Positions 4,302 through 47,538 of a DNA stretch of 64,000 nucleotides are shown here, in pieces (position 1 is the first letter of the stretch; every line of letters begins with the position of its first letter). The DNA comes from Nitrosotalea sp. (GTDB lineage Archaea > Thermoproteota > Nitrososphaeria > Nitrososphaerales > Nitrosopumilaceae). Where the stretch lies: contig JAHEYD010000003.1 in NCBI GenBank assembly GCA_023251795.1, positions 73,853-137,852 on the forward strand. The letters run 5' to 3'. The notes beneath the pieces are model-generated. The model saw only the letters and a program-made list of their open reading frames with translations. It was not told the DNA's origin and did not search any database. The position numbers and the translations under genes were made by a program.

Positions 4302-4681
4302 AATTAATCGAAAAGTTGATTGATAGATTTTCAATTTTGGTTTTCCGGTTGAGGAATGGATTCGACTATAGAGACTGTTGGAACCTTGACCACTCTTTGG
4401 CAAAGTGGTTAGTGCCAAGGCTTCGGTTTCTTAGCAAAAATACGGCCAGTGCTCCGATAGGCTATCCTAATTTAACTATAGATATTGGTGGTAATTGGGA
4501 AGCTAAGACCGATTTTGAAGCTTGGAGTAGAGATCTTGGAATTGCTGCAGACCAGCTTGAAGCATGGGTGGAACGTCAAGAATTTTACGATGGGGATTTT
4601 GAAAAAGATAAAATGATGTTCGATGATTCGAAAAAAGCGATGATGTGGGTAGCTGAATGGTACCACTCGCTTTGGGATTGA
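4286..4681 (+). CDS. hypothetical protein
   Basis: ORF track, in operon context. Confidence 0.45.
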   Translation: MENQVKLIEKLIDRFSILVFRLRNGFDYRDCWNLDHSLAKWLVPRLRFLSKNTASAPIGYPNLTIDIGGNWEAKTDFEAWSRDLGIAADQLEAWVERQEFYDGDFEKDKMMFDDSKKAMMWVAEWYHSLWD

Positions 4682-4742
4682 GTAGGAGTAGGAAAACTCC
4701 AGCGTGGCGTAATATCAACAAGAAGGAAGACAGGAGGAAGAA

Positions 4743-5060
4743 ATGCTTAACGAAGACATGAGAGAGTATGGTATTGATTTTGACGTTATTGGTCGGCTTG
4801 CCAAAAGGTATTCGACCCCGCCGAATGTTTTGATCACTGATATTGATTTCGTTACGTCGGCTGACGGTGATTCCATTACTTGTGTGATCGGCGCGAGAAT
4901 CAATGTTTGGGTGTGTGGAGAGCACAAGCTTACCACTACCGGTTCCGCATACCGAAACCCAAACGATACCCCTAATCAGCAAATTGGCGGAGCAATTGCG
5001 TTCGCCCGCGCTCTAAAGAATCTTTCTGAAATAGCGTGGTTTCATTTTGACACCGATTAA
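4743..5060 (+). CDS. hypothetical protein, DUF1876-like C-terminus
   Basis: GSAYRNPNDTPNQQIGGAIAFARALKNL resembles the DUF1876 (Rv2632c-like) motif, recalled from memory. RBS AGGAGG. Confidence 0.4.
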   Translation: MLNEDMREYGIDFDVIGRLAKRYSTPPNVLITDIDFVTSADGDSITCVIGARINVWVCGEHKLTTTGSAYRNPNDTPNQQIGGAIAFARALKNLSEIAWFHFDTD

Positions 5061-35044: not shown

Positions 35045-36879
35045 ATTTCAAAGACCTTATAGAAGCCATTTTAAAAGAAACCAACAAATCAGTTGGTAGG
35101 ATAAGGGGTGGTATTCCTGAAATTCCGTCAGAATTATCACAAAAAGGGTATGCTAACCCATCTGTCAAAAAATCAGCGGACCACGGTTTCAAAATCATAA
35201 AAGGAAACTATAGGAAAGCTTTGAGTGATTTGGTTACCGATTACCAAGAAAACAGGTTGGTGCTGCGCAAGTTCAGGGAAAACGCCGAAAAATTAATGAG
35301 ATCGTACTTCGAAAAAGCATACCGATATGGAATGATGATTCAAGCCGGTATATCATCGACCCCCAAGGATTTCCAGTTGAAGCAGTCTCAGTACCAGTGG
35401 ATAGCGAAAGCTGCTGCTGAAGAATACAAATACTTTGAGTCATTAATCAACGATATTAGAACCGGGAACCAGAAAGTACATTTCCTTTCTAGGGTAGATA
35501 GATATGTTGATACTCTGAATTCGATAAAGGACGCTGGAATTGTTGCAGGCACGCCAGTTGAAGGGTATGTAATATTTCGTTGGGAAGTTGACTATGACGC
35601 GGAACATTGCCCCGGTTGCCTATATCTTGCAGAGCATTCACCTTTTACTAGAGAAAATATACCATGTTTGGTCGGGGAAACAAAAATCCATACTTTGGCT
35701 GGTGAATTTACTATAGAAGAATTGTATCGTGGCAAATATCCGTATGAACATATGTTTGTTTGGTCAATAGATGGTGATATGATATTACCATCATTGGTAA
35801 AAGCTGTGGTGTGCAATGGGGAAGAAGAAACGTTAATAGTTACTTTAGATAATGAAGAAAAAATTGAATGTACTCCTGACCATTTATTTATTTTGAAAAA
35901 CGGAAAGGTGAGAAAATCGTCTGAATTATCAGTCGGTGATTCTCTTATGAGATTTGACACTGTAATTGATAGGGATGGATATAGAAAAATATTAAGCAAA
36001 AAAACTAATAGGTGGTTTAGAGCACATTGGTTGGTGGCCAGATATTTCGGTTTATTTGATGGTGTTAAATTTGATGGACAAAGGCCAGTTATACATCATA
36101 TATTATCAGATCAAAAATCAAATAACGACCCGATGAACTTGTTGGCGATGGGAAACGTGGATCACAACAAACTTCATGGTGATCATTTTGTAAAAAATCT
36201 AAGAAATTGGGAGACAGAAAATCCTAATGACCTTTTTGAACTGAGAAGGAATAATGCTAATAGATTCAGGGATTTGTGGTCCAAATTTGACAATAGAATA
36301 ACAAATAACCAGAAATTAAATGCTAAAAAAAGGGCTGAATGGGCTAGAAACAACAGACATTTATTCTCAGAAAAAGCGAAACAGGCATTTGTAAATAATC
36401 CAGGATTGAGAAATATCAGTAGGGAATCCGGGAAAAGAAACTTTAAACACATAGAAAAATTCATAAAATATATAAGTGATGATAAAAAGAAAGAAATATT
36501 AAAGCTACGTATGGAAGGTAATTCGTACAACGAAATATCGAAAATTGTTGGAGTATCTATTGGTGGTGCATGGAAGGTGTGCAAGAACAATTTATCAAAC
36601 CACAAAGTAGTGAGTGTAAAGAAATCTACTAAAAAAATAGTGTATGATCTTATCACTGATGCTGGAAATTTTGCTTTATCAAGTGGTATTTTTATACACA
36701 ATTGTACACCTAGAGACGGTGCTACGCAATGTCTTTATAATTGTAAGTGTGGTCTAACAGTACAGAAAGTAGATAAGAAGACTTACGATTCAATAGTTAG
36801 GTCCTCAATTTCCAAGAAGTCGATGTTGTCACACCTTAATAGGATGAAACAGGCTTCTTTAGGCACGAGGAGAAGATGA
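35041..36879 (+). CDS. Mu F / SPP1 gp7-like head morphogenesis protein interrupted by an intein
   Basis: The exteins join as HCPGCLYLAEHSPFTRENIP|CTPRDGATQCLYNCKCGL (C..C ... NC[KR]C motif). Follows the portal gene. Confidence 0.6.
   Translation: MNFKDLIEAILKETNKSVGRIRGGIPEIPSELSQKGYANPSVKKSADHGFKIIKGNYRKALSDLVTDYQENRLVLRKFRENAEKLMRSYFEKAYRYGMMIQAGISSTPKDFQLKQSQYQWIAKAAAEEYKYFESLINDIRTGNQKVHFLSRVDRYVDTLNSIKDAGIVAGTPVEGYVIFRWEVDYDAEHCPGCLYLAEHSPFTRENIPCLVGETKIHTLAGEFTIEELYRGKYPYEHMFVWSIDGDMILPSLVKAVVCNGEEETLIVTLDNEEKIECTPDHLFILKNGKVRKSSELSVGDSLMRFDTVIDRDGYRKILSKKTNRWFRAHWLVARYFGLFDGVKFDGQRPVIHHILSDQKSNNDPMNLLAMGNVDHNKLHGDHFVKNLRNWETENPNDLFELRRNNANRFRDLWSKFDNRITNNQKLNAKKRAEWARNNRHLFSEKAKQAFVNNPGLRNISRESGKRNFKHIEKFIKYISDDKKKEILKLRMEGNSYNEISKIVGVSIGGAWKVCKNNLSNHKVVSVKKSTKKIVYDLITDAGNFALSSGIFIHNCTPRDGATQCLYNCKCGLTVQKVDKKTYDSIVRSSISKKSMLSHLNRMKQASLGTRRR
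35665..36702 (+). mobile_element. intein (346 aa) carrying an HNH endonuclease and an HTH domain
   Basis: CLVGETKIHT (block A), TPDH (block B), VIHHILSD...NLLAMGNVDHNKLH (HNH), SYNEISKIVGVSIGG (HTH), GIFIHN|C. Confidence 0.8.
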
Positions 36880-36983
36880 TAACAGTTATTTTGTTAGTGT
36901 TGGTGCTTGTCGTATCATTAGCGTCGTATATTGTATGTTCCCTGTCAGAAAAAATCCATTTACGAAAACTACACCATCGTTAA
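36876..36983 (+). CDS. small membrane protein (35 aa)
   Basis: ATGA overlap with the upstream gene. MITVILLVLVLVVSLASYIVCS... Confidence 0.3.
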   Translation: MITVILLVLVLVVSLASYIVCSLSEKIHLRKLHHR

Positions 36984-37164
36984 TATATAGATCGTGTCTT
37001 GTCAGAGAATTCGTAAATGAATTACAACGAAATAGTATTTATGTGGACAATCGCTAGAGGAGACAAATATGACAGATATTTGGGGCTGTAATTCCTCGCG
37101 GTATCATACTCGACAAATTAAAGAACAGTAATTTACCCGGTCCGTTTCTCCGGGTGTAGTATAC

Positions 37165-37194
37165 TTGACAGATTATATACCTGTGTGTTATGAT
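37165..37194 (+). promoter_or_regulatory. sigma70-type promoter heading the RNA island
   Basis: TTGACA 37165-37170, 18 nt, TATGAT 37189-37194. No RBS or ORF start follows. Confidence 0.6.
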
Positions 37195-37199
37195 TCGTC

Positions 37200-38387
37200 T
37201 GTAGTTGATGGTTCATTGACAATTGGAATCCGAATGGACAGTCAATAAAATGACTCTCCTGTTCAATAATGAGTTAGTGGTGTGGTTGGTCTACCCCGCC
37301 CGAAGAGGGAAGACCTTTTCCCCTTTAATGGGGGCCAAGATGATAAGGGCTAATAATGGCGGAGGGTTGTCGGACACCGCTAAAATAAGCCGCCCGCCGA
37401 CACGGGAAACTGCCGCCTAATATATAGATTTTTTGCGACAGGTCTTGACCCCCGTTAAAGGGGAAACGGAAAAGTTGTGGTTTTGATGCTTTGCGGTGAA
37501 GCTTCGGAGGTCGCTAAAACCTCGCGTTGATATCCGCAAAGTTGGAGTCGCAAAGATCCAAAGGGTGAAGCCGTAATATACACGGTGGACAATGGGTGAA
37601 TTTCTTTACGGCGAAATGGAGCGGGAAGTATTACCCATGCAATCCACGACCCCTTGAATTTGCTGGAAGGGGAACCCACAACCGTTGTCGCGGGGAGCGC
37701 TAGTGCGCGGGATGGCCTCATAAGCCATGCCTTGGCGGGTGCGAATCCCGTCCCCGCAACCAAGCTTTGGACCATGAGCGGGCCGTGGGGTGGCGAATGT
37801 CACTGCGGCATTAAGCTAGACAAAATAACCTTTCTGTCAGGGGAGGAATAGACAAATCTAGTGGCTCGACTGACATTGAGAATCGCGAGTGGTCCAATCG
37901 TTTTGTAGTACCCGTTCTAGGAAGACGCTTTGCGACTTCCAAGTTGGCGTTAATGAGAATGCGCCCGGAACGGTTATTGACCCGAGATAAGATCAGGGTC
38001 AAATCCGGAACACTCTTGTGTTCCTATCGTGTGCGGCCTTTCGTCGTTGAGCCGATAATCAACGACTGAAAATTTCGATTCTGTCGAAGAACGCGACCTA
38101 CGTTAGCTAGGGTCCGAGAAGATACTTGAGAAGTCCTGTTGCTTAGGCTTCGTGGGGCGAGCCTTAAGGGACCCCTGTAATTCCCAGCCCCCTAATTTTC
38201 GGAGTCCGGCCCCGAGTTGTTCTGATCAAACAACGAATCTTCCACTTCCTAACGAGGATTCCCTCTAGGTTGTAAGAAAGAAGCCGGGGATTTGCTGAGG
38301 AATCTATCTGGTGGTGGAAGCTGACTGATTTGAACCTATTGTTTACTGGTTGTATTAGCTGGAATTGGTTCAAGTATAGAAATTAGT
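37200..38387 (+). ncRNA. large ORF-free, helix-dense RNA locus A (unclassified; GOLLD/ROOL-class candidate)
   Basis: Only short ORFs occur, overlapping in several frames and on both strands, with no RBS. Many nested helices, for example 37489-96/37534-41, 37507-11/37519-23, 37996-38002 with 37977-83, 38007-13/38018-24 and 38043-50/38059-66. Pseudoknot between 37570-76/37606-12 and 37592-97/37633-38. Confidence 0.55.
37690..37762 (+). ncRNA. tRNA-like element (CAT anticodon loop) embedded in locus A
   Basis: Acceptor GCGGGGA/TCCCCGC (7 bp). Anticodon arm ATGGC-CTCATAA-GCCAT. T-arm CGGG-TGCGAAT-CCCG, then AACCA. The D region is a non-canonical GCGC-TAGT-GCGC hairpin. Confidence 0.45.
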
Positions 38388-38867
38388 ATGAACAATTGCG
38401 CGAATTGCGGTAACCAGCTAGCGAAATATCAAATGAAATTTTGCTCTATTAAATGTTCTGTGTCTTACTCTAATAGAACAAGAGTAAGGCCACATCAGAA
38501 TCAGTTAAAAATTAGGTTATGTAAGAAATGCAAATCCGATATAAATAGACGAGATTGGAAAGACAACCGGTTTTTGTGCGAAGAATGTTCTGATAAGTCA
38601 AAAACTGATCTGTACCGAATTGGTGAGTTGAAAGATTTTAAAAGAGTAATAAGTGAGAATGCTAGAAGGGTATATTACAAATCAAATAAACCAAAACATT
38701 GTGTAGTTTGCGGGTATGATAAACATTTTGACGTTTGCCACGTAAAAGCAATAAAAGAATTCCCACCGAATGCTGTTGTTTCAGAAGTAAACTGCATAGA
38801 CAACCTAGTAGCGTTATGTAAAAATCATCATTGGGAATTCGATAGCGGGTTGATTACGCTGGGGTAA
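38388..38867 (+). CDS. HNH homing endonuclease
   Basis: CVVCGYDKHFDVCHVKAI...NLVALCKNHHWEFD. The stop TAA lies inside the 5' end of the next tRNA. Confidence 0.8.
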   Translation: MNNCANCGNQLAKYQMKFCSIKCSVSYSNRTRVRPHQNQLKIRLCKKCKSDINRRDWKDNRFLCEECSDKSKTDLYRIGELKDFKRVISENARRVYYKSNKPKHCVVCGYDKHFDVCHVKAIKEFPPNAVVSEVNCIDNLVALCKNHHWEFDSGLITLG

Positions 38868-38943
38868 CACTCTGGGAGTGTAACCGGCTGTTAACCGGTC
38901 TAGGGAAACCTTAAGTTTGGTTCGATTCCAAACCTCAGCGCCA
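38858..38943 (+). tRNA. tRNA with anticodon GTT (Asn) on a class II body (16-nt variable arm)
   Basis: Fold: GCTGGGG TA ACAC-TCTGGGA-GTGT A ACCGG-CTGTTAA-CCGGT CTAGGGAAACCTTAAG TTTGG-TTCGATT-CCAAA CCTCAGC G CCA. Confidence 0.55.
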
Positions 38944-39011
38944 TTTAAATTTAAACAAACGAAGTCCAACCCCGCAATTAGACCTAGCGGGAGAAACGAG
39001 GAACAGATATT

Positions 39012-39087
39012 GCCCCTGTCGTCTAAAGGTTCAGGATGAGAGTCTTTCAAGCTCACGATCCGGGTTCGAGTCCCGGCGGGGGTACCA
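39012..39087 (+). tRNA. tRNA-Glu(TTC)
   Basis: Collinear with E. coli tRNA-Glu. Loop CTTTCAA. T-arm CCGGG-TTCGAGT-CCCGG. Acceptor GCCCCTG/CGGGGGT. Encoded CCA. Confidence 0.8.
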
Positions 39088-39721
39088 GAATTGGTTGGCA
39101 GTCCAATGAAACAAAACTGCCTAGGCGCGTTCTAAATTCCGAGTCTGACGAACGGCGAAGATAATGACTTGGGGATCGCTCGCTAGTTCATAGGAGCAAC
39201 CTTCTGCCAGTAAGCGTTGCTGATATAGCGAGAGACTGGTTTCGATGGTCGTGGACTTAGCCACGTTAAATAGGGCGATAGGCTAAGTGCGGATTTCGCG
39301 TCAGGTCGTTCGTACCGTGTTTGGAGACTTCCCTCCTACTTCAAACACGCGGGGAGACACCGGATGAAGGGCGGGCACTCCGATGAGTCTCTTAAATCAA
39401 TCGCACCGCTGACGCGATTTCGAGCCGCTAGGAAAGGCTTCTGGTTTGGTCACCGGCTGTCCGTGCCACACTTTAGTGCCCCTTGTAAAGGGCCGAGAAC
39501 TGACCCTTCTTATTGTTGTGGAACCTAGCAATCTTCTCCGTGCTTCTAAAACAACCCGGCACGGCGTCGGAAATTTGAGGGTTGCGATCCTAGGAGTGCA
39601 GGGGGGTTTCCGAAATGCATCGGTGCAATACGCGTGAGTACGTCAGACCAATGAACACTGACGAGGCAGGCGAATGGTCGCTGGCGAAGCGCGTTCCCCA
39701 AATTTCGCGAAAGATATAAAG
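39088..39721 (+). ncRNA. ORF-free helix-dense RNA locus B (unclassified)
   Basis: About 630 nt between tRNA-Glu and the next HNH gene with no credible ORF. Helices include 39097-102/39116-121, 39179-85/39226-32 enclosing 39196-200/39216-220, and a 10-bp helix 39316-25/39340-49. Confidence 0.5.
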
Positions 39722-40063
39722 ATGCCATTCAAAAATAAAAAACAAAAAGCCGAATACATGGCTGAATATAGAAAGCGAATGACCGAAGAGCAGAAGCGAA
39801 AAGCTTCTGCCAGAGTAGAAGATAGGAAAAGAGAGATTGCGGAATGGTTACAAGATTTAAAGCTGTCTTTGGCATGTGAGGAATGTGGTGAGAGCCATCC
39901 GGCTTGTTTGGATTTTCACCACACTGACCCATCAGAAAAAGAAGTGGCAATATCTAGGATAAGGTTAAAAGGTTGGTCAACAAAAAGAATAATGAAAGAG
40001 ATAAAGAAGTGCAGAGTTTTGTGTGCAAATTGCCACAGGAAATTGCATTATGTGGCCGGTTAG
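39722..40063 (+). CDS. HNH homing endonuclease (paralog family)
   Basis: CEECGE...LDFHHTDP...CRVLCANCHRKLH. The stop TAG lies at positions 8-10 of the next tRNA. Confidence 0.8.
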   Translation: MPFKNKKQKAEYMAEYRKRMTEEQKRKASARVEDRKREIAEWLQDLKLSLACEECGESHPACLDFHHTDPSEKEVAISRIRLKGWSTKRIMKEIKKCRVLCANCHRKLHYVAG

Positions 40064-40128
40064 TGAAACGGTTATCCCATCTGGCTTACATCCAGAAATT
40101 AGAGGTTCGATTCCTCTACCGGCTACCA
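40054..40128 (+). tRNA. tRNA-Val(TAC)
   Basis: Acceptor GGCCGGT/ACCGGCT. Arm TCTGG-CTTACAT-CCAGA. T-arm AGAGG-TTCGATT-CCTCT. A CCA. Confidence 0.8.
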
Positions 40129-40148
40129 GTCCTTTCTTTCGCACCAAC

Positions 40149-40222
40149 GGGCGGTTAGTTAAACGGGATAACATTGGCTTTGCAAGCCAAGATTGAGAGT
40201 TCGATTCTCTCACTGTCCACCA
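40149..40222 (+). tRNA. tRNA-Ala(TGC)
   Basis: Acceptor GGGCGGT/ACTGTCC with G3:U70. D arm GTTA/TAAC. Arm TTGGC-TTTGCAA-GCCAA. T-arm GAGAG-TTCGATT-CTCTC. Confidence 0.85.
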
Positions 40223-40401
40223 GAGATAAATTTACACCCCCAATTACCTGATGTTGAGATCAGGGAAAACGACCGTAGGGGCGGAAAGCAGGTGTGCTAC
40301 GGCCTCAGTCGCGGCGATTTGCGAGTGGCTGGCCCGTCGAAGGGGACTTTCCGGGGGGTGTTTTCAGGCTTCGCAGCAAAAACGATCAAACGAAGGAAAA
40401 T

Positions 40402-40475
40402 TCCCCTGTCGTTTAACGGTAAGACCCTCGCCTTTGGAGCGAGTTATGTTCGTTCGATTCGAACCGGGGGTGCCA
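40402..40475 (+). tRNA. tRNA-Gln(TTG)
   Basis: U1:U72 mismatch and G73. Arm CTCGC-CTTTGGA-GCGAG. T-arm GTTCG-TTCGATT-CGAAC. Confidence 0.8.
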
Positions 40476-40496
40476 AAATACGTAGCCAAGTTTGTT

Positions 40497-40569
40497 GTGA
40501 CGGTAGTTTAATCGGTTAAAACTCTCCCTTGTGACGGGAGCGATGTGGTTCGACTCCACCCGTCACCCA
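40497..40569 (+). tRNA. tRNA-His(GTG)
   Basis: Acceptor GTGACGG/CCGTCAC. D arm GTTT/AAAC. Arm CTCCC-TTGTGAC-GGGAG. T-loop TTCGACT with a short stem. The 3' end and the -1 position are ambiguous. Confidence 0.6.
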
Positions 40570-40748
40570 TACTACATATGGGAATGTGTGTCGGAAGCTT
40601 TTCTTTGAAACAGGGAAATCGATAACTCAAAGGCGTGAACAATTCAGGGTCTTTGACGGGGCCTGAGAAAAATAACGCGCCGGGCGTCAACTCGGAAGCG
40701 CCAATGTTGAATTGGCGCATCGGTTTCCCTATTTGAGAGAACAGAATT

Positions 40749-40823
40749 CGGGATGTAAGCCAATGGTAGACGGCGCGCTTTGGGGGCGCGAAGCTGGAGG
40801 TTCGACTCCTCTCATCCCGACCA
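40749..40823 (+). tRNA. tRNA-Pro(TGG)
   Basis: Acceptor CGGGATG/CATCCCG. Arm CGCGC-TTTGGGG-GCGCG. T-arm GGAGG-TTCGACT-CCTCT. Weak D stem. Confidence 0.7.
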
Positions 40824-40824
40824 T

Positions 40825-40901
40825 GACCCCTTAGCTCAATCGGATAGAGCTATTGCCTTCTAAGCAATGGGTTGGGGGTTCGATTCCCTCAGGGGTCGCC
40901 A
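40825..40901 (+). tRNA. tRNA-Arg(TCT)
   Basis: Acceptor GACCCCT/AGGGGTC. D arm GCTC/GAGC. Arm ATTGC-CTTCTAA-GCAAT. Confidence 0.85.
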
Positions 40902-40909
40902 AAATTCTT

Positions 40910-40984
40910 GCCGCATAAGCATTAGTGGTGATGCAGTAGTTTTGTAAACTACAGAACAGGGTCCGACTCCTTGATGCGGCTCCA
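40910..40984 (+). tRNA. tRNA-Thr(TGT)
   Basis: Acceptor GCCGCAT/ATGCGGC. D arm GCAT/ATGC. Arm GTAGT-TTTGTAA-ACTAC. T-loop TCCGACT (C at position 55). Confidence 0.8.
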
Positions 40985-40989
40985 AATAC

Positions 40990-41019
40990 TTGACAGGGTA
41001 TTCCCTCGTATGATATACT
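40990..41019 (+). promoter_or_regulatory. phage promoter family copy
   Basis: TTGACA 40990-95, N18 ending in TATGA, TATACT 41014-19, leader TCTTTTATTGGGAGGGAGGAACGAAATG. Confidence 0.7.
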
Positions 41020-41044
41020 TCTTTTATTGGGAGGGAGGAACGAA

Positions 41045-41311
41045 ATGGAAAATTGGGACCAGATCGGATGCTACGGGGCGACGGAAGACGATGTTATCAG
41101 CGCTCTCCGGTCCGCCGTCAAAGTTCAGTTCGTTCGTAATCCTGAGATTCCCGGTGAACCGTTGGATGCGGTTGCTCTTCGTAAGGTTGTCGCTTCTCTC
41201 CTCAGTGATGTTCAGGAAATGATCGAGCGCGGTCTGAATGGGCAGGCCCGGAAGACCCTGAACGTCGCCAAACTGGCTCTGTTTGAGCCCAACCGAATCA
41301 TTGGAGACTGA
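41045..41311 (+). CDS. hypothetical protein
   Basis: The ATG follows the conserved leader. Visibly GC-richer codons. Confidence 0.55.
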   Translation: MENWDQIGCYGATEDDVISALRSAVKVQFVRNPEIPGEPLDAVALRKVVASLLSDVQEMIERGLNGQARKTLNVAKLALFEPNRIIGD

Positions 41312-41313
41312 CC

Positions 41314-41463
41314 ATGTGTTGCGACTTCTGCGGAAACGAAGTTGTTGACCTTGCTCTCGACCGTCCCACTAGCCTCTGTTCCTATGAGTGCGCGAACGAG
41401 GCTTTTGATATGTCGCTTCCTGTTGAAGATCCTGACGAATATCTTAGCTACGAGGAGCGGTAA
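41314..41463 (+). CDS. small Cys-rich protein (49 aa)
   Basis: GGAGA RBS. MCCDFCGNEV...CSYEC. Confidence 0.35.
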   Translation: MCCDFCGNEVVDLALDRPTSLCSYECANEAFDMSLPVEDPDEYLSYEER

Positions 41464-41464
41464 A

Positions 41465-41587
41465 ATGAGACTCGTTCTAAAGCGACCGATTCGACCGTGG
41501 CGGATGGTTCTCCGGTATTGGTTCCCGAGGCGACTTACTTGCGATTGGAGCCCGAGAGTTCATGCATGGCTTTGGTGGAATTTCTAG
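41465..41587 (+). CDS. small Arg/Trp-rich ORF (40 aa)
   Basis: GAGGAG RBS 8 nt upstream. Composition is unusual. Confidence 0.25.
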   Translation: MRLVLKRPIRPWRMVLRYWFPRRLTCDWSPRVHAWLWWNF

Positions 41588-41596
41588 GAGATAGAA

Positions 41597-41998
41597 ATGA
41601 GAGTCTGTGAGGATTGTGGGGCCGATAGATCTGGCGCGATTAACCCGAAGACCGGGGACAATCTGACTTGCTATTGCGGTGGAAAGGTCGTCCGCAAGCC
41701 TTCTGTTGGTTCTCCGCTGATCGTGATTGTTAACGAGGATAACTGCATCATCGGGGTCGATGTTAATAGCGGCGGATACCCTTGGCTTCCTTCTCATCCG
41801 AGTGGATGGAAATTCTTCGCTACTATTGAAGATGCGGTAACGTACAGAGACACTTTTAAGCATGACACCCCGAATGCAACTGGTGATCCTAGGAAGTGGA
41901 GGGTGGTTTATTTCCGTTGGGAAATCGATTTTATCCCCCCGGTGTTTTTTGGTGGGTCTGCTCTTACTGACTTTCTTAAACCACAGGTGGCTCGATAG
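41597..41998 (+). CDS. hypothetical protein (N-terminal Zn-ribbon)
   Basis: AGGAG RBS. The last 18 nt overlap tRNA-Ile(TAT), and the stop TAG is in its D loop. Confidence 0.55.
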   Translation: MRVCEDCGADRSGAINPKTGDNLTCYCGGKVVRKPSVGSPLIVIVNEDNCIIGVDVNSGGYPWLPSHPSGWKFFATIEDAVTYRDTFKHDTPNATGDPRKWRVVYFRWEIDFIPPVFFGGSALTDFLKPQVAR

Positions 41999-42057
41999 GT
42001 AAAGGCGCTCGTCTTATAAGCGAGTATACGTAGGTTCAAATCCTACCCTGTGGACCA
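41981..42057 (+). tRNA. tRNA-Ile(TAT)
   Basis: Acceptor CCACAGG/CCTGTGG. Arm CTCGT-CTTATAA-GCGAG. T-arm GTAGG-TTCAAAT-CCTAC. Confidence 0.7.
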
Positions 42058-42059
42058 AA

Positions 42060-42136
42060 GCCGTGGTAGCCCAATTGGTAGAGGCGGCAGACTTAAAATC
42101 TGCAAAGTGTGGGTCCGACTCCCACTCACGGCACCA
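42060..42136 (+). tRNA. class I-shaped tRNA with anticodon TAA (Leu codons)
   Basis: Acceptor GCCGTGG/TCACGGC. Arm GCAGA-CTTAAAA-TCTGC. 5-nt variable loop AAAGT. T-arm GTGGG-TCCGACT-CCCAC. A73. Confidence 0.6.
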
Positions 42137-42153
42137 ATAGAAAGGATGCTGAA

Positions 42154-42450
42154 ATGTTCTTCTCTAACGAAACTAAGCACAAGATCGAAAATTGGTTCAA
42201 AGAGAAAGTATTTCATGGAAATGATTTTGATGGTTGGTGGTGTGATTATTCCAATTCCAAATCTTCTTTCGATGTTTCCGGCAATAAGTTTTCGTTTAAA
42301 CTTTCTTGGCTTCTTGAATTGAAAGATATTTCCCGCGTTGACGATATTGACGTAGGAGATTTTTCTCATTCGGAAGGAAACTGCCCGACTTGTGATTTTG
42401 GGTCGAAAGATTCGGTAACTTTTTACTTTTACAAGAATTCGCCCCTTTAG
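42154..42450 (+). CDS. hypothetical protein
   Basis: Internal ATG after AAAGGA. The stop TAG lies in positions 8-10 of the next tRNA. Confidence 0.45.
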   Translation: MFFSNETKHKIENWFKEKVFHGNDFDGWWCDYSNSKSSFDVSGNKFSFKLSWLLELKDISRVDDIDVGDFSHSEGNCPTCDFGSKDSVTFYFYKNSPL

Positions 42451-42514
42451 TTCAATGGTAGAACTGCTGGCCTTTAACCAGCGTATGGGGGTTCGATTCC
42501 CTCAGGGGGTACCA
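42441..42514 (+). tRNA. tRNA-Lys(TTT) with C at position 33
   Basis: Acceptor GCCCCTT/AGGGGGT. D arm GTTC/GAAC. Arm GCTGG-CCTTTAA-CCAGC. T-arm GGGGG-TTCGATT-CCCTC. Confidence 0.7.
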
Positions 42515-42684
42515 AATTTTGATCTCTTAGGTTAAACGGTCTGTTGACCCACAGTTGGAGTCGAGAGATCAACCGGTGCTCGAATCCGTTCCAACATCGA
42601 GATTTGGGTTATCTAAGACCCTTGATCGTGAGATCGAAAAGATTAGACGGTTAGCGGGTGGACCGAGAACACCCGCATGACTTT

Positions 42685-42761
42685 GGGCTTGTAGCTCAGT
42701 TGGTTAGAGCACACGGCTGATAACCGTGAGATCGGTGGTTCAAATCCACCTGAGCCCACCA
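42685..42761 (+). tRNA. tRNA-Ile(GAT)
   Basis: GGGCTTG TA GCTC-AGTTGGTTA-GAGC A CACGG-CTGATAA-CCGTG ... GGTGG-TTCAAAT-CCACC. Confidence 0.9.
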
Positions 42762-42926
42762 AATATCCTGATGGGGTGTGGTAGCACTCGGTTGCGGAGC
42801 GGTGGAATCTTCGTGGCTCATAGGTTTGCTTGACCTACCAGAAAAGAGCAAACTGCCAAATGTGAAGAAAGTCGGAGCGGGGGTGGGGAATCCCGCCATC
42901 AGGAGTCTGAGGGAAGGAAATCTAGT

Positions 42927-43349
42927 ATGGCTATAAACGAGTTTTTTGGTGAAGAAGATCAAGAATTCTACCGAGAAGTAGCGGAAACCGAGTGTAAAAA
43001 GTTCTTGCAGCAAAGAGGATGGTCAGTAGGGAAAGCCGACCCAAAATCTAGATTTGACTTGTTTGCTACTAAGGACAATAGGTTTGTTAAATTTCAAGTT
43101 AAAAGTACGAAAGTCATTAAAAGTGGGAATCCAGAGTTTAGGACCGGGAAAGTTACGTATAATAGCAAAATCATAAAAAGAACAAAGTATGAAGAAGGTG
43201 ATTTTGACTTTTGGTTCTTCTATTGTGGGGTCACGGGGGAAAGTTGGGTAGTCCCTTATCGCGAGTTACGATCCGGTTCTGCTACTAGAATGAACAAAAA
43301 ATTTGAAAAATGGAGGGTGACGCGTACAGTGGGTAGGCCGTCGCCTTGA
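42927..43349 (+). CDS. PD-(D/E)XK nuclease (I-Ssp6803I-like free-standing endonuclease candidate)
   Basis: FDLFATKDNRFVKFQVKS (D...QVK motif). About 130 aa. The 3' end reads into tRNA-Ser, and the stop TGA is its anticodon. Confidence 0.5.
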   Translation: MAINEFFGEEDQEFYREVAETECKKFLQQRGWSVGKADPKSRFDLFATKDNRFVKFQVKSTKVIKSGNPEFRTGKVTYNSKIIKRTKYEEGDFDFWFFYCGVTGESWVVPYRELRSGSATRMNKKFEKWRVTRTVGRPSP

Positions 43350-43401
43350 AAGCGAATGGAACCTGAAAGGGTTTGGGGTTCGAGTCCTCCGCCCTCCGCC
43401 A
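43312..43401 (+). tRNA. tRNA-Ser(TGA)
   Basis: Acceptor GGAGGGT/GCCCTCC. Loop CTTGAAA. Long variable arm. T-loop TTCGAGT. G73 and CCA. Confidence 0.8.
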
Positions 43402-43418
43402 TTTTTTGACGTAGTTAC

Positions 43419-43554
43419 GGAAGGGAAGGTAGGTGGCTTGCCGGATACCCTGCTAAGGTATTGCGCTCAGAAATGGGCGTCGAGGGTTCGACACCCTAAA
43501 CCAGACGACCGGTGCGCACCATCGGTTGGGGATCGATACCTCTTCCTTCCTCCA
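43419..43554 (+). pseudogene. tRNA-Ser(GCT)-like gene with about 45 nt inserted between T-arm and 3' acceptor strand
   Basis: 5' acceptor GGAAGGG (43419-25). Arm ATACC-CTGCTAA-GGTAT. Variable hairpin present. T-arm AGGG-TTCGACA-CCCT ends at 43497. The matching 3' strand TCCTTCC plus T CCA appears only at 43544-54. Confidence 0.4.
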
Positions 43555-43562
43555 AATTTTAT

Positions 43563-43650
43563 GGAAGGACCCCCAATGGTGAGGGAAGCGCATTGCTAAT
43601 GCGTGGCTCGTGCATACGGGTTGAAGGTTCGAATCCTTCTCTTTCCGCCA
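43563..43650 (+). tRNA. tRNA-Ser(GCT)
   Basis: Acceptor GGAAGGA/TCTTTCC. 3-bp D stem. Arm GCGCA-TTGCTAA-TGCGT. Long variable arm. T-arm GAAGG-TTCGAAT-CCTTC. Confidence 0.8.
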
Positions 43651-43697
43651 GAAATAGCTCTCTTTTTTGCTTGGTTGTTTTGGTTGGGGTACTCTAT

Positions 43698-43895
43698 ATG
43701 GAACCAACCAAAAAAGAGAATGCCGATAGATTGGCTCAGTTCGCTAGTTCTATACTGTTCGCTTCTTTGCTGTTTCACAGAAGAGCATGTTTTGATTCTA
43801 ACAACTGCAAAGAAGAAAATTGTATGGTGACCAACACTCTGAATCTAGCGGAAAAATTCCTAGAAGAGTTTAATAATAGAATAAGACCGTGGTAA
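43698..43895 (+). CDS. hypothetical small protein
   Basis: Internal ATG of ORF 43512..43895, downstream of the tRNA. No clear RBS. Confidence 0.3.
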   Translation: MEPTKKENADRLAQFASSILFASLLFHRRACFDSNNCKEENCMVTNTLNLAEKFLEEFNNRIRPW

Positions 43896-43896
43896 C

Positions 43897-43982
43897 GGGA
43901 GTTTATACCGTTAAAGAGGCGGGATTGACTGTAGATCAATCGTCTTTGTGCTCGGTAGGCGCGATACCTACAACTCCCACCA
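43897..43982 (+). tRNA. tRNA-Tyr(GTA), class II, atypical T-loop
   Basis: Acceptor GGGAGTT/AACTCCC. Arm ATTGA-CTGTAGA-TCAAT. T-arm GTAGG-CGCGATA-CCTAC. Confidence 0.55.
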
Positions 43983-43983
43983 T

Positions 43984-44057
43984 GCTCCCTTAGCTTAATG
44001 GTAAAGCTACCGGCTCTTAATCGGTTGATGTGGGTTCGATTCCCTCAGGGAGTACCA
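43984..44057 (+). tRNA. tRNA-Lys(CTT)
   Basis: Acceptor GCTCCCT/AGGGAGT. D arm GCTT/AAGC. Arm ACCGG-CTCTTAA-TCGGT. Confidence 0.85.
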
Positions 44058-44062
44058 ATCCC

Positions 44063-44139
44063 GTCCCTATAGCACAAATGGATAATGCGCGGCTCTCCTA
44101 AGGCCGATATTCAAGGTTCGATTCCTTGTGGGGACACCA
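44063..44139 (+). tRNA. tRNA-Arg(CCT)
   Basis: Acceptor GTCCCTA/TGGGGAC. Arm CGGCT-CTCCTAA-GGCCG. T-arm CAAGG-TTCGATT-CCTTG. Confidence 0.8.
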
Positions 44140-44154
44140 TTTTTGGAGAAAGTA

Positions 44155-44532
44155 ATGTACAAAGACCCAAATGATGAAAGAGCAAAAGCATCTAGGAGAA
44201 AACATTATAGTAAGAACAAGAAATCATATTACCAACGTAACGAAATCAAAAGACACCAATTACGAGAGTATTTAAGAGAAATAAAAAATAAACCATGTTT
44301 AGACTGTGGAATTCAATACCCGTTTTATGTTATGGAATTTGATCATCGTGATCCGAATGCTAAACTGCGCGGAGTCACTAAATTAGTGAATAACTGCAAC
44401 ATGAAAAAACTAACAGAAGAAATAGAAAAGTGTGATGTTGTTTGCGCTAATTGTCACAGAATAAGAACATGGAATAAAGAAACGGGAGTTTTGAAGTATA
44501 GGGACGGGATTAGGGTAATAGTGGATAGCTAA
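44155..44532 (+). CDS. HNH homing endonuclease (paralog family)
   Basis: GGAG RBS. CLDCG...MEFDHRDP...CDVVCANCHRIRT. The stop lies inside the next tRNA-like gene. Confidence 0.8.
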   Translation: MYKDPNDERAKASRRKHYSKNKKSYYQRNEIKRHQLREYLREIKNKPCLDCGIQYPFYVMEFDHRDPNAKLRGVTKLVNNCNMKKLTEEIEKCDVVCANCHRIRTWNKETGVLKYRDGIRVIVDS

Positions 44533-44591
44533 GGTAGCCGGTTGGCCTCCAAAACCATACTGCGTGGGTTCAAATCCTACATCCACTGCCA
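44520..44591 (+). tRNA. tRNA-Trp(CCA)-like (weak stems)
   Basis: Acceptor AGTGGAT/ATCCACT. Loop CTCCAAA. T-arm GTGGG-TTCAAAT-CCTAC. The anticodon and D stems have mismatches. Confidence 0.45.
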
Positions 44592-44621
44592 CTCTTACAG
44601 CCCCCGCCAAGTTTAAATTGA

Positions 44622-44697
44622 TGCGAGATAGTTTAAATGGTAAAACGTCAGACTCTGAATCTGCTCGATGAAAGTTCGAATCTTTCTCTCGCTGCCA
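44622..44697 (+). tRNA. tRNA-Gln(CTG)
   Basis: U1:U72 and G73, as in the other Gln. D arm GTTT/AAAC. Loop CTCTGAA. T-arm GAAAG-TTCGAAT-CTTTC. Confidence 0.75.
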
Positions 44698-44698
44698 T

Positions 44699-44773
44699 GG
44701 GGACGAAGCTAAATGATCAGGCAGGAGTCTGCAAAACTCCTAGACGTTGGTTTAATTCCAACCGTCCCCTCCA
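44699..44773 (+). tRNA. tRNA-Cys(GCA)
   Basis: Acceptor GGGGACG/CGTCCCC. Arm GGAGT-CTGCAAA-ACTCC. U73. Confidence 0.8.
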
Positions 44774-44799
44774 TTTTTTGTAGTGAAACAGGAGACCCG

Positions 44800-45141
44800 A
44801 TGAAAAAAATTATAGTGTGTGGGGGTAGGGATCTTCCCGTTACAAGGCAATGGGTCCAGCGCGTGGCCGAAAAATTGAAGGAAATAAAAGCTACGTTAGT
44901 GATATCGGGTTGCGCCCGTGGTGGTGATGCAATTGGAGAGGCTGCCGCTATTAGCATAGGGTTGCCAATCGAAAAGCATCCTGCACAGTGGGATAAATGG
45001 GGAAAACGGGCAGGTTATTTAAGGAATGTCGAAATGCTTGCTTGTTGTGATGGTACACTTTCGCTTCCGGGTGGTAAGGGTACCGAAATGATGAAGAAAA
45101 TCACATTGGAAGCAAAGAAACCCTTGTGGGTATTGGAGTGA
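44800..45141 (+). CDS. SLOG-superfamily protein (DUF2493-like)
   Basis: AGGAGA RBS. KIIVCGGRD...VISGCARGGDAIGE...KWGKRAGYLRN..ML pattern. Confidence 0.6.
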   Translation: MKKIIVCGGRDLPVTRQWVQRVAEKLKEIKATLVISGCARGGDAIGEAAAISIGLPIEKHPAQWDKWGKRAGYLRNVEMLACCDGTLSLPGGKGTEMMKKITLEAKKPLWVLE

Positions 45142-45151
45142 CCGACATATT

Positions 45152-45228
45152 GGCCCTATCTTCTAAAGGCTTAGGATGCGACCCCCTCAAGGTTGCGATG
45201 TTGAGTTCGAATCTCACTAGGGCTACCA
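45152..45228 (+). tRNA. tRNA-Glu(CTC) with C at position 33
   Basis: Acceptor GGCCCTA/TAGGGCT. Glu-type D arm. Arm CGACC-CCCTCAA-GGTTG. T-loop TTCGAAT. Confidence 0.65.
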
Positions 45229-45240
45229 ATAGACGGAGAA

Positions 45241-45495
45241 ATGAAGAGGGAGTGTGTCGATGGTGTTTGGTATAGACAGGAATACGAGCACAGTCCCGAT
45301 TGTAGATGTTCGAAATCCGATAATTGTTGGGTTGTTCCTGAAATAGCGTATAGATATTTTGATACTGCCATGAGAAGTAGGCCAAAAATATCGCCGCAAA
45401 CAGTTATTAAATTCATGTGCAATGACCCAAATTGTACTGCCATAATGTTTGTTTCTAGTAAAATTTTTAAGAATATCCCAAATGTAATAGAATAG
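45241..45495 (+). CDS. small Cys-rich protein
   Basis: GGAG RBS. ORF track. Confidence 0.45.
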   Translation: MKRECVDGVWYRQEYEHSPDCRCSKSDNCWVVPEIAYRYFDTAMRSRPKISPQTVIKFMCNDPNCTAIMFVSSKIFKNIPNVIE

Positions 45496-45500
45496 GATAA

Positions 45501-45516
45501 AGGGGTATAGGGGTAT
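45501..45516 (+). repeat. tandem 8-nt duplication AGGGGTAT x2 at the 5' end of tRNA-Asp
   Basis: Read directly: AGGGGTATAGGGGTATAGCTC. Confidence 0.8.
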
Positions 45517-45583
45517 AGCTCAACGGTAGAGCGCTGGCTTGTCACGCCAGTGGTTGCCGGTTCGAATCCGGTTGCCCCTGCCA
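45509..45583 (+). tRNA. tRNA-Asp(GTC)
   Basis: AGGGGTA TA GCTC-AACGGTA-GAGC G CTGGC-TTGTCAC-GCCAG ... GCCGG-TTCGAAT-CCGGT TGCCCCT G CCA. Confidence 0.9.
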
Positions 45584-45587
45584 TCAA

Positions 45588-46049
45588 ATGAAAAAATGTA
45601 CATATTGTAAATTAGAAAAGCCGAAAACTGAATTCTCGAAAAACGCAACGAGAAAAGATGGGATTCAAAATATCTGTAAAGAGTGTAGCAAAAGAAGATT
45701 GATTGAAGCCCACAAGAAAAGTTACAGTAATAGAAAACATATAATAAAAGAAAACAGAAAAGAAGAGATTGAAAGAAATAAACAGATAGTGGCTGAACAT
45801 AAATTAGGCGGGTGTAAATTTTGTTCGGAGAAAGATCCGGTGACACTTGATTTTCACCACGTTAACCCAAAAGAAAAAGATTTATCAATATCAGTCATAA
45901 TTCATAGGTACACTACAAACAAATTAGTAAAAGAAATAGAAAAATGTATAGTCCTGTGTTCTAACTGTCACAGGAAGCTTCATGCTTATGGCGAAGATGT
46001 GGGTTCAAGTCCCATCGGTACTGCCATGGTGAAGTTAGCTCAACGGTAG
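45588..46049 (+). CDS. HNH homing endonuclease (paralog family); C-terminal tail reads through tRNA-derived sequence
   Basis: The ATG lies 4 nt after the CCA of tRNA-Asp. CKFCSE...LDFHHVNP...CIVLCSNCHRKLH. After about 45990 the frame runs through a tRNA 3' fragment and the next tRNA-like gene. Confidence 0.75.
   Translation: MKKCTYCKLEKPKTEFSKNATRKDGIQNICKECSKRRLIEAHKKSYSNRKHIIKENRKEEIERNKQIVAEHKLGGCKFCSEKDPVTLDFHHVNPKEKDLSISVIIHRYTTNKLVKEIEKCIVLCSNCHRKLHAYGEDVGSSPIGTAMVKLAQR
45999..46026 (+). pseudogene. orphan tRNA 3' fragment (T-arm plus 3' acceptor strand plus CCA)
   Basis: GTGGG-TTCAAGT-CCCAT CGGTACT G CCA. No matching 5' half; the upstream sequence encodes the HNH CxxCH motif. Confidence 0.5.
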
Positions 46050-46108
46050 AGCAGGAAGCGTTCTAATTATTCGCTTGCCGTATGTTGGTTCGAGTCCAAC
46101 ACTTCATC
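46029..46108 (+). tRNA. aberrant tRNA-like gene with 11-nt anticodon loop and no encoded CCA
   Basis: GTGAAGT TA GCTC-AACGGTA-GAGC A, extended stem GGAAGCG/CGCTT(G)CC, loop TTCTAATTATT, T-arm GTTGG-TTCGAGT-CCAAC, ACTTCAT C. Confidence 0.4.
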
Positions 46109-46112
46109 GCTT

Positions 46113-46189
46113 GTTCCCCTAGCTTAACGGACTAGAGCAAAACGCTACGAACGTTTTAGGTACAGGTTCGAATCCTGTGGGGAACTCCA
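46113..46189 (+). tRNA. tRNA-Arg(ACG)
   Basis: Acceptor GTTCCCC/GGGGAAC. Arm AAACG-CTACGAA-CGTTT. T-arm ACAGG-TTCGAAT-CCTGT. Confidence 0.9.
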
Positions 46190-46194
46190 ATTTT

Positions 46195-46269
46195 GCGGGT
46201 TTGGTATAAAGGCAATTATCTTTGGCTTCCAACCAAAGGATGAGAGTTCAAGTCTCTCAACCCGCTCCA
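46195..46269 (+). tRNA. tRNA-Gly(TCC)
   Basis: Acceptor GCGGGTT/AACCCGC. Arm TTTGG-CTTCCAA-CCAAA. U73. Weak D stem. Confidence 0.7.
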
Positions 46270-46618
46270 AATTTAGTTCGTGTTTTCTGTTCCTAAGATA
46301 TGGAAGCACGGATGATACCGGTAACTAGGGACGACCGGTTGGTTTGTTATGGCGAACCTAGCCAACGGATCTTAGGGGAGCCGTTGGTAAGTCCCGGAAA
46401 ATTTGATTGGGTTACTAGCGAAAAGTGTACCATAATAAGCACTTCTCGAAAGAGATAGCTGGTATGCAGTCCCGTGGTTGGTTCAGTTACGACGAGAATG
46501 GTGGCACTACTGACGCAAACTATTCTTAGCGCTGAGTAAGTCGGTGGCAGAATACAGGAATGGGAGAGATACCCAACTCTTTGCGCAAAGGGTCTCGACC
46601 ACCCGCCAACCATTATTT
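46270..46618 (+). ncRNA. ORF-free structured spacer C (unclassified)
   Basis: About 350 nt with no credible ORF. Helices include CCAACGG/CCGTTGG (46361-67/46380-86). Confidence 0.35.
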
Positions 46619-46643
46619 GTCGGCGTAGCTCAGTCCGGTAGAG
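46619..46643 (+). pseudogene. 5' half of a split tRNA (acceptor strand plus D arm)
   Basis: GTCGGCG TA GCTC AGTCCGGTA GAG, then runs straight into the RBS and ATG of the HNH gene. Confidence 0.55.
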
Positions 46644-46658
46644 AAAGAAAGGGGTACA

Positions 46659-46958
46659 ATGCCGTATTCTGACCCGGAGAAACAAAAATTATCAACCAAG
46701 AATAGACAGGAAAGAAAGCGTAACGAATTTAGAAAATGGAAAGAAGATAATCCTTGCTCTGATTGTGGAAATTTTTATCCTTACTATATTATGCAATTAG
46801 ATCATACTTCCGACAAGAAATTTAATATTGCACAAAGAAGTGCTTCATATGGTAGCAAATATTTCTTTGAAGAAATAGCAAAATGCGATTTAGTCTGCTC
46901 CAATTGTCACGCAGTTAGAACGCATGAGCGCAGCAATGCCAAGGTAGCTCAGCGGTAG
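46659..46958 (+). CDS. HNH homing endonuclease (paralog family)
   Basis: CSDCG...MQLDHTSD...CDLVCSNCHAVRT. The stop TAG is in the D loop of tRNA-Phe. Confidence 0.8.
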   Translation: MPYSDPEKQKLSTKNRQERKRNEFRKWKEDNPCSDCGNFYPYYIMQLDHTSDKKFNIAQRSASYGSKYFFEEIAKCDLVCSNCHAVRTHERSNAKVAQR

Positions 46959-47013
46959 TAGCGGCTGGCTGAAGACCAGCGCGTCGGAGGTTCGATTCCT
47001 TCCCTTGGCACCA
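46938..47013 (+). tRNA. tRNA-Phe(GAA)
   Basis: Acceptor GCCAAGG/CCTTGGC. Arm GCTGG-CTGAAGA-CCAGC. T-arm GGAGG-TTCGATT-CCTTC. Confidence 0.85.
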
Positions 47014-47054
47014 AGCCCTACGCGTCGGTGGTTCAAATCCATCCGCTGACACCA
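47014..47054 (+). pseudogene. 3' half of the split tRNA (variable region, T-arm, 3' acceptor strand, CCA)
   Basis: ...GCGTC GGTGG-TTCAAAT-CCATC CGCTGAC A CCA. CGCTGAC pairs 7/7 (one G:U) with GTCGGCG at 46619-25. Confidence 0.55.
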
Positions 47055-47058
47055 TATC

Positions 47059-47089
47059 TTGACAAGGTACCCCCTACATATGGTATAAT
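47059..47089 (+). promoter_or_regulatory. phage promoter family copy
   Basis: TTGACA 47059-64, N19 ending in TATGG, TATAAT 47084-89, leader ...GAGGGAGGAAACCGATG. Confidence 0.7.
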
Positions 47090-47112
47090 TCTTTTGTTGA
47101 GGGAGGAAACCG

Positions 47113-47538
47113 ATGAGATCATCATCCTCTATGCTGTCCCAATTCACAGGGGAGATTTCCATGAGTGATTATACTAAGGCGGTCGAGCGGGCGGTGGAGG
47201 CGGCGAAGAAGATGCGCGGCTTCTACCTAAGGCAGTGGAGCGACGATGAAGCAGACGAAAAGCCGCAGTCAGTCTTGGATTTCGACTGTGCCCTCTCCGC
47301 CGTGCGCGAGCAGAAAGTGCGGGCGGTGGAGGCCAGGGTGGTGTTCCGTGACTTCTCCGGCGGCGTTGTATCAGCGGAAATTCTTCTGCCCCCTGAGACG
47401 CCAATTGGAGATCGAGTCACGATCCTGCTGCACGGCGAGCCATGGAACGCAGACGAGAAGTTGATGATTCACTTGGCTGGTGGTAGTCAGGAACACGACC
47501 CCGGTTGTGTTTTTGAATGTTCAAAGTGTGGAAGCTAG
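47113..47538 (+). CDS. hypothetical protein
   Basis: The ATG follows the conserved leader. GC-rich codons. Confidence 0.55.
   Translation: MRSSSSMLSQFTGEISMSDYTKAVERAVEAAKKMRGFYLRQWSDDEADEKPQSVLDFDCALSAVREQKVRAVEARVVFRDFSGGVVSAEILLPPETPIGDRVTILLHGEPWNADEKLMIHLAGGSQEHDPGCVFECSKCGS

Follow-up and report, generated by a model that had tools for sequence, protein, structure and literature searches.

Locus B, the 634 nt at positions 39088–39721 on the plus strand of the 64-kb window (the window being the whole stretch of DNA that was analyzed), is best read as a transcribed spacer of a phage tRNA array whose single functional RNA element is a pistol self-cleaving ribozyme at 39250–39426, with P3 expanded to a 130-nt domain. 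A probability of roughly 0.7 was assigned to this reading. Judged by its sequence, the 177-nt element adds a new member to an established class, and its cleavage is predicted. The remaining ~460 nt of the locus give no indication of being one large folded RNA. The initial annotation had proposed a structured non-coding RNA of about 630 nt in the manner of ROOL; the non-coding and structured character was borne out, while the structured part proved to be the 177-nt pistol rather than the whole locus.

Phage and tRNA array around locus B

The window came from a tailed phage that encodes a T4-type portal, inteins and several homing endonucleases. ARAGORN detected 27 or more tRNA genes, arrayed on the plus strand at ~38.8–47 kb. 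Locus B lay between tRNA-Glu and an HNH gene, as annotated. The upstream neighbor, tRNA-Glu (UUC) at 39012–39087 on the plus strand, had an encoded CCA and scored 52.7 bits with the Rfam tRNA model. The downstream neighbor, an HNH homing-endonuclease gene at 39722–40063 on the same strand, matched PHROG family phrog_3106 (E = 3e-26), and its 3′ end overlapped tRNA-Val (40054–40128). The ENA gene caller placed the start of this gene at 39674, not at 39722; the annotated ATG at 39722 was favored by the homologs, which were 110–120 aa long and covered ~85% of the 129-aa reading.

Homologs of the HNH protein also occurred in the tRNA arrays of other phages, where they bordered a tRNA gene on its 5′ side. 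These arrays were without a pistol and without a long leader, and for one homolog the spacer was only 143 nt, again with no pistol. The overlap of HNH gene 39722–40063 with tRNA-Val was repeated by a homolog in L044 that overlapped tRNA-Trp, and the 3′ end of another HNH ORF in the window (46659–46958) overlapped tRNA-Phe (46938–47013). A sequence at 46620–46641 (GGCGTAGCTCAGTCCGGTAGAG), stranded 17 nt upstream of the latter ORF, resembled a tRNA 5′ acceptor plus D-arm. The apparent homing target of this HNH family is the 5′ edge of tRNA genes.

Two further contigs, one of 140 kb in ENA and one in Logan, carried the same phage at 100% identity and therefore offered no usable variation. No gene was called in 39088–39721 in either contig, and the longest ORF within the 634 nt was 63 aa, in agreement with the description of the locus as ORF-free. 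The proposal of a structured RNA had been tied to conservation in related phages, and here the outcome was mixed: the nearest relatives reached by a synteny search had portal proteins ≤51% identical and downstream regions without a tRNA array, yet a 119-nt block of the locus resembled another phage contig (see below). The intein-bearing neighbor, used as a guide to homologs of the locus, led to nothing, and blastn and megablast against the INPHARED phages gave no DNA match.

The strongest promoter-like sites near the locus were at 37165–37194 and 40990–41019 (11/12 matches), with no terminator between them; locus B is therefore probably carried within one precursor. Three Rfam tRNA-type matches were left uncalled by ARAGORN, at 44699–44770 (53.9 bits), 43311–43398 (39.5 bits, tRNA-Sec model) and 45950–46023 (25.6 bits), and the true number of tRNA or tRNA-like genes in the array may exceed the 27 listed.

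Locus A (37270–38387), a 1.1-kb ORF-free region of ~50% GC, was situated just downstream of the promoter-like site at 37165–37194 (11/12 matches, TG); it had no Rfam match save a weak tRNA-like one at 37688–37759 and no similarity to locus B. A comparison of loci A, B and C for shared modules had been suggested in the initial annotation. When the loci were aligned, A, C (46270–46618) and the smaller spacers were found to have no sequence in common with B. Two smaller elements closed by hairpins, 42517–42575 directly after tRNA-Lys (z = −2.25) and 42765–42904 directly after tRNA-Ile (z = −1.49), were without an Rfam match, and 42517–42575 resembled a truncated tRNA-like minihelix.

Pistol core and position of the 3′ half

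The Rfam model of the pistol self-cleaving ribozyme, RF02679, matched 39250–39310 with 36.8 bits against a gathering score of 34.5 (E = 0.0041 for the 64-kb window and 5e-5 for 801 nt). It was the only non-tRNA Rfam match at or above the gathering score in the 64 kb. In the RF02679 alignment, all on the plus strand, the P1 hairpin (39250–39265) was formed by CGUGG (39250–39254) and CCACG (39261–39265), with five of five pairs and the loop ACUUAG (39255–39260). The stretch 39266–39282 then comprised the linker UUAAAUAG (39266–39273), the P2 5′ strand GGC (39274–39276), the loop GAUA (39277–39280), purine-32 (G39281) and G33 (G39282). The pseudoknot 3′ strand CUAAGU (39283–39288) paired with the P1 loop in six out of six Watson–Crick pairs. 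Because the covariance model does not score this pairing, the pseudoknot is independent support for the assignment, and it departed from the consensus and from env25 through compensatory changes. The core GCG followed at 39289–39291, providing G40, C41 (paired with G33) and G42. Roles have been attributed to pistol positions 32, 33 and 40–42, G40 being the general base in solved pistols, and a G is allowed at position 32 (PMC6154101).

An alignment of 19 pistols including the window's (A4), trimmed to the core and the P3 ends and with the 3′ halves parsed by hand, showed that all 16 invariant non-spacer columns were kept in the window's copy and that P1 and the pseudoknot covaried. In A4, 95.9% of cells paired, with a covariation score of 0.882 compared to 0.186 in shuffles, values that lean towards the model because the 3′ halves were hand-parsed to it. 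The motif GTTAAATAG-N5-TARGC-N5-GCG occurred once in the window, with zero mismatches, and at 18 loci in IMG/VR, all of them true pistols; it was regarded as specific, since each of these loci had a P1 and a complementary pseudoknot.

Members of the family have a P3 helix and a strictly conserved 2-nt P3/P2 junction (PMC4604425). Because the Rfam alignment left P3 unformed, the downstream sequence was searched for a P3-closing strand followed by a 2-nt junction and a P2 partner. Three 3′ halves were considered, of which the middle one was the best anchored in 450 nt; its P3 energy of −18.5 kcal/mol was matched by 0.23% of 3000 shuffles. It yields an extended P3 domain of 130 nt (39292–39421), closed by an 11-bp helix (39292–39304/39409–39421) made up of G39292–C39421, A39293–U39420, a UU/UU internal loop and then nine Watson–Crick pairs (39296–39304/39409–39417). 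The P3 insert of 104 nt (39305–39408) contained a 10-bp hairpin (39316–39325/39340–39349). The P3 domain folded alone with the exact closing helix (z = −2.0), and the helix was retained in a 191-nt context.

The predicted scissile dinucleotide, G39422 and A39423, is placed by the conserved 2-nt junction of the family (PMC4604425), here the two nucleotides from C39421 to G39424. The P2 3′ strand GCC (39424–39426) pairs with GGC at 39274–39276. The junction is GA instead of the consensus GU, a variant also found in four other pistols (L060, L061, L063, and L071). P2 has three G–C pairs only, too short a helix to be more than weak evidence by itself, and the 3-bp register was likewise present, with different base pairs, in L050, L063, L064, and L071.

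A compact pistol as Rfam aligns it (39250–39310), cut at G39305/U39306 and with the long-range helix being incidental, appears unlikely. Its 3′ half, GGU CGUU at 39304–39310 on the plus strand, comes directly after the core and has the consensus GU junction and a P2 of 4–5 bp (GGCG/CGUU), and the P3 of most pistols is compact, spanning 14–34 nt. The 11 nt between G43 and that junction, however, form no helix (seven non-pairs), and the sole 3-bp alternative leads to a 4-nt junction, against the strictly conserved length (PMC4604425). P2 would also contain two G–U pairs. A P3 helix right after position 43 was present with the long-range partner 39409–39421 only and absent with the local alignment. 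Pair 43–52 was U–G in 13 pistols and G–C in exactly four with G43 (L068a, L068b, L069, and the window's copy), whereas the compact 3′ half and the most distant one both oppose G to G at 43/52; the other G43 pistols all have C52.

Constrained folding of the three 3′-half models did not discriminate between them (≤5 kcal/mol apart and 17–21 kcal/mol above the nested MFE), and there was no close relative of locus B to show covariation in its own P3. In vitro, activity is retained by bimolecular pistols that lack the P3 loop (PMC4604425). In nature, inserts of 86–289 nt in P3 are tolerated, the spans being 86 nt in L073, 122 nt in L069, 134 and 172 nt in L068, and 289 nt in L055. These large-P3 pistols scored 33.6–44.7 bits in Rfam. 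The marginal score of 36.8 bits in the window is attributable to the inability of the Rfam model to bridge the P3 insert, and for the same reason large-P3 pistols fall near or below threshold and have their cleavage sites mis-assigned; annotation pipelines probably under-count them.

Alternatively, the pistol could be an inactive remnant that has decayed within spacer DNA, in which case the locus would do nothing at the RNA level other than separate a tRNA from the HNH gene that invaded; this is improbable. The marginal Rfam score, the short P2 and the non-consensus junction are in line with decay, as are the movement of the HNH family into tRNA arrays, the homolog with the 143-nt spacer and no pistol, and a whole locus that folds no better than shuffles. 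Decay would nevertheless be expected to hit some of the invariant core, P1, the 6-bp pseudoknot, G43–C52 and the 11-bp P3 closure, all of which are intact.

A discontinuous pistol with its 3′ half at 39670–39682 (GCGAAU G GU CGCU, plus strand), a 370-nt P3 insert and a cut at G39677/U39678, 44 nt before the HNH start codon, is very improbable. No other GU site in the downstream 450 nt comes with a full P2; this one offers the canonical junction, a 4-bp P2 (GGCG/CGCU) and a 6-bp P3 with one bulge, and the 289-nt insert of L055 indicates that such distances are possible. Its bulged P3 is weak, however, 43/52 is G.G, a comparable site arose in 1.9% of shuffles vs. 0.23% for the middle site, and it competes for the 5′ strand of the much stronger 39409–39421 helix.

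CGUCAG and its complement CUGACG each occurred twice in the locus (39297–39304, 39409–39416, 39642–39647, and 39658–39663). The alternative pairings allowed by these repeats could compete with P3 closure.

Remainder of the locus and the downstream block

The locus had been described as GC-richer and as carrying many helices. Its GC content (52.7%) did exceed that of the window (43.5%) and of the two HNH genes (35–40%), but it was shared with coding ORFs at 41000–42000 (50–53% GC); GC-richness alone is thus no sign of RNA structure, the coding parts of the array being equally GC-rich. The helices were all present in the sequence, with 39179–39185/39226–39232 better placed one base over (39180–39186/39226–39232), but they were not above chance. 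The MFE of the whole locus was −209.5 kcal/mol, compared to −209.65 ± 9.75 kcal/mol in shuffles (z = 0.02; minus strand z = 0.54), and a stem of ≥10 bp (G–U allowed, loop 3–40) arose in 66% of dinucleotide shuffles. Of the listed helices, only 39316–39325/39340–39349 fell in the ribozyme, within the P3 insert, and for the locus as a whole the others were statistically unremarkable. Windows of 100 nt were more stable than shuffles only in 39175–39350 (z down to −3.6), with z = 0 or higher in 39350–39720. The nested MFE fold of the entire locus did not recover the ribozyme.

The leader between tRNA-Glu and the ribozyme, 162 nt at 39088–39249 on the plus strand, had no Rfam match and held the helices 39097–39102/39116–39121 and 39180–39186/39226–39232; the leader hairpin 39176–39236 had z = −2.5. 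At 39090–39121, 3 nt after the CCA of tRNA-Glu, AUUGG/CCAAU and GGCAGU/ACUGCC make a possible all-Watson–Crick H-type pseudoknot, a candidate that was set aside as the same geometry, with G–U allowed, was found in 51% of shuffles. The region from the ribozyme to the HNH start codon, 295 nt at 39427–39721 on the plus strand, showed no excess folding stability and no Rfam match. No promoter or terminator match was obtained in either the leader or this tail. Two hairpins listed in the tail, 39539–39544/39560–39565 and 39642–39647/39658–39663, were present in the sequence.

For the remaining sequence, inspection by eye and Rfam led to the rejection of hammerhead, twister, hatchet and HDV-like readings. 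An HDV-like theta ribozyme had no Rfam match, and the HDV nested double pseudoknot is excluded right after tRNA-Glu, because only 8 nt are available between the strands of the first post-tRNA helix, too few for P2 and P3. A HEARO or IscB omega RNA was rejected as well: there was no Rfam match, and the HNH protein has only 113 aa and is not of the large IscB type.

The 119-nt block at 39476–39594 (plus strand) was similar to L068 4437–4543, with a Smith–Waterman score of 38 vs. 21.5 ± 2.9 in shuffles; of 1000 shuffles and of 5991 real segments, one each reached this score. The block began ~50 nt 3′ of a G43-type pistol in the window as well as in L068. The L068 region (3978–4770 of IMGVR_UViG_3300044730_001415) contained tandem pistols at 3978–4197 and 4201–4382, both with a large P3 domain and both within an ORF-free stretch; after them came 388 nt without an ORF, then tRNA-Lys and a sparse tRNA array. 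There was no protein similarity between the window's phage and the L068 fragment, the 162-nt leader had no similarity to L068, and neither the P3 inserts nor the leaders of the window and the two L068 copies were similar. Consensus folding of the two block sequences gave no convincing shared structure; hairpin 39539–39544/39560–39565 was not kept in the L068 relative, and 39642–39647/39658–39663 was outside the aligned stretch. Three pattern scans for a third copy of the block returned only L068 and chance matches in coding DNA.

Shared with one other phage, the 119-nt block may belong to the same module as the ribozyme. A broader reading, doubtful and offered tentatively, is that the pistol and the block ~50 nt downstream make up a single module that recurs in phage tRNA arrays. 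The 5′-OH end of an RNA of ~300–390 nt would then arise by self-cleavage, its other end being set by the next gene; the ribozyme would serve as a processing signal, freeing either a protected leader or a previously undescribed non-coding RNA where a tRNA cluster begins, and the expandable P3 would be a landing pad for inserts. If the module reading is true, the other end of the RNA would be an RNase P-processed tRNA in L068, while here an HNH gene would later have moved in before tRNA-Val.

It is scarcely credible that the 634 nt constitute a single large, structured non-coding RNA similar to ROOL or GOLLD. Such an RNA would fit the length of ~630 nt, a GC content above the phage average, the lack of ORFs, the position beside phage tRNAs and the one downstream block conserved in another phage. 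Rfam 15 includes both ROOL and GOLLD, however, and neither matched at E up to 5 over 36500–47500 or at E up to 10 over 39000–39800. The whole-locus z of 0.02, z = 0 or higher over the 3′ 370 nt and helices at chance frequency also speak against it, as do a conserved block without shared structure and a leader and P3 insert that were not conserved in the one relative found.

A degraded or unrecognised protein gene, which the initial annotation had named as the competing explanation, is practically negligible: there are open frames of 54–63 aa, but the six-frame translations of locus B had no Pfam or PHROG family and no tblastn match in 50,697 phage records, the 63-aa ORF had no relative among 1.84 billion proteins (HMMER), and the L068 copy of the shared block has a stop in the frame of that ORF.

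Proposed working and comparison with known systems

The preferred reading, a pistol with an expanded P3 in a transcribed spacer, suggests the following sequence of events. The precursor would run in the order locus A, HNH-1, tRNA-Asn, tRNA-Glu, locus B, HNH-2 and the seven tRNAs from tRNA-Val to tRNA-Thr (40054–40984). During transcription P1 would form and its loop would pair with 39283–39288 to give the pseudoknot, after which 39292–39304/39409–39421 would close P3 and GGC/GCC would make P2. By analogy with solved pistols, the 2′-OH of G39422 would be activated by G40 (G39289), with purine-32 (G39281) donating the proton to the leaving group. From the Mg2+-dependent chemistry of the family, a 2′,3′-cyclic phosphate on G39422 and a 5′-OH on A39423 are expected. 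The cut would separate an upstream RNA (HNH-1, tRNA-Asn, tRNA-Glu, and the leader) from a downstream RNA with a 5′-OH end, a 299-nt leader, the HNH-2 mRNA and the following tRNAs. Splitting the precursor in this way may uncouple the fates of the upstream and downstream pieces. Since members of this HNH family insert next to the 5′ end of tRNA genes, the ancestral order was probably pistol, spacer and tRNA, as in L068.

The biological role of pistol ribozymes is still called unknown in reviews (PMC6765202). A pistol inside a polycistronic tRNA/homing-endonuclease unit, together with a related pair heading the tRNA array of another phage, provides a testable setting, and one possible role is for the ribozyme to separate tRNA precursors from mRNA, a parallel to theta ribozymes. 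A speculative large RNA is hereby replaced by an ordinary, explainable element. Of moderate interest are the location in a tRNA array, a cleavage site that the standard model mis-assigns, and the conserved downstream block.

ROOL and GOLLD RNAs typically occur in phages or prophages near tRNAs. They are like locus B in size range, in the phage or prophage setting and in tRNA proximity, but locus B matches neither Rfam model and has no locus-wide structure signal.

Theta ribozymes, which are minimal HDV-like ribozymes, adjoin phage tRNAs (PMC10879173). Like the pistol of locus B, they are small self-cleaving RNAs among phage tRNA genes that presumably act on a polycistronic precursor. They belong, however, to another fold and chemistry class, and they abut and trim the tRNA 3′ end, whereas the pistol begins 162 nt after the tRNA.

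The pistol class is reportedly that of Weinberg 2015 and Harris 2015, with env25 and Lysinibacillus sphaericus said to be its representatives. The window's copy shares with the env25 and L. sphaericus pistols of RF02679 the P1, the 6-bp pseudoknot, the AAAUA linker, purine-32, G33–C41, G40, G42, the 2-nt junction and a phage setting, and in env25-type copies P1 (CGUGG/CCACG) and the linker were identical to those of the window. It differs from the RF02679 pistols in having a branched P3 of 130 nt rather than a short hairpin, a 3-bp P2, GA rather than GU at the junction, G43–C52 and a location inside a tRNA array.

Other observations were made on env25-type pistols. A motif, CAGGAGNAGUUGGCAGCRUAGACAC ... 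GUGAAUGCUGU, with no Rfam match, was found right after those in L050 (~12950–13010), L052 (~6135–6190), and L055 (~6575–6628). In L050, a sub-threshold Hatchet match (48.5 bits vs. a gathering score of 51) was located 0.8 kb upstream. L055 6241–6585 (JGI Ga0181591_10015173) was an env25-type pistol whose 289-nt P3 insert held a 75-aa cysteine-rich ORF (6338–6562); it is a natural split pistol, since its 3′ half aligns cleanly with compact relatives.

The closest parallels in architecture are the large-P3 pistols from IMG/VR and JGI, i.e., the L068 tandem pair, L069/L070, L073, and L055. Their P3 inserts had no sequence similarity to that of the window, and the insert of L055 differs in carrying the 75-aa ORF. 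All have the same core as the window's copy, with P3 closed by a helix of 7–9 bp, and L068 and L069 also share its G43–C52 pair, yet use a 4-bp P2 and an AU junction.
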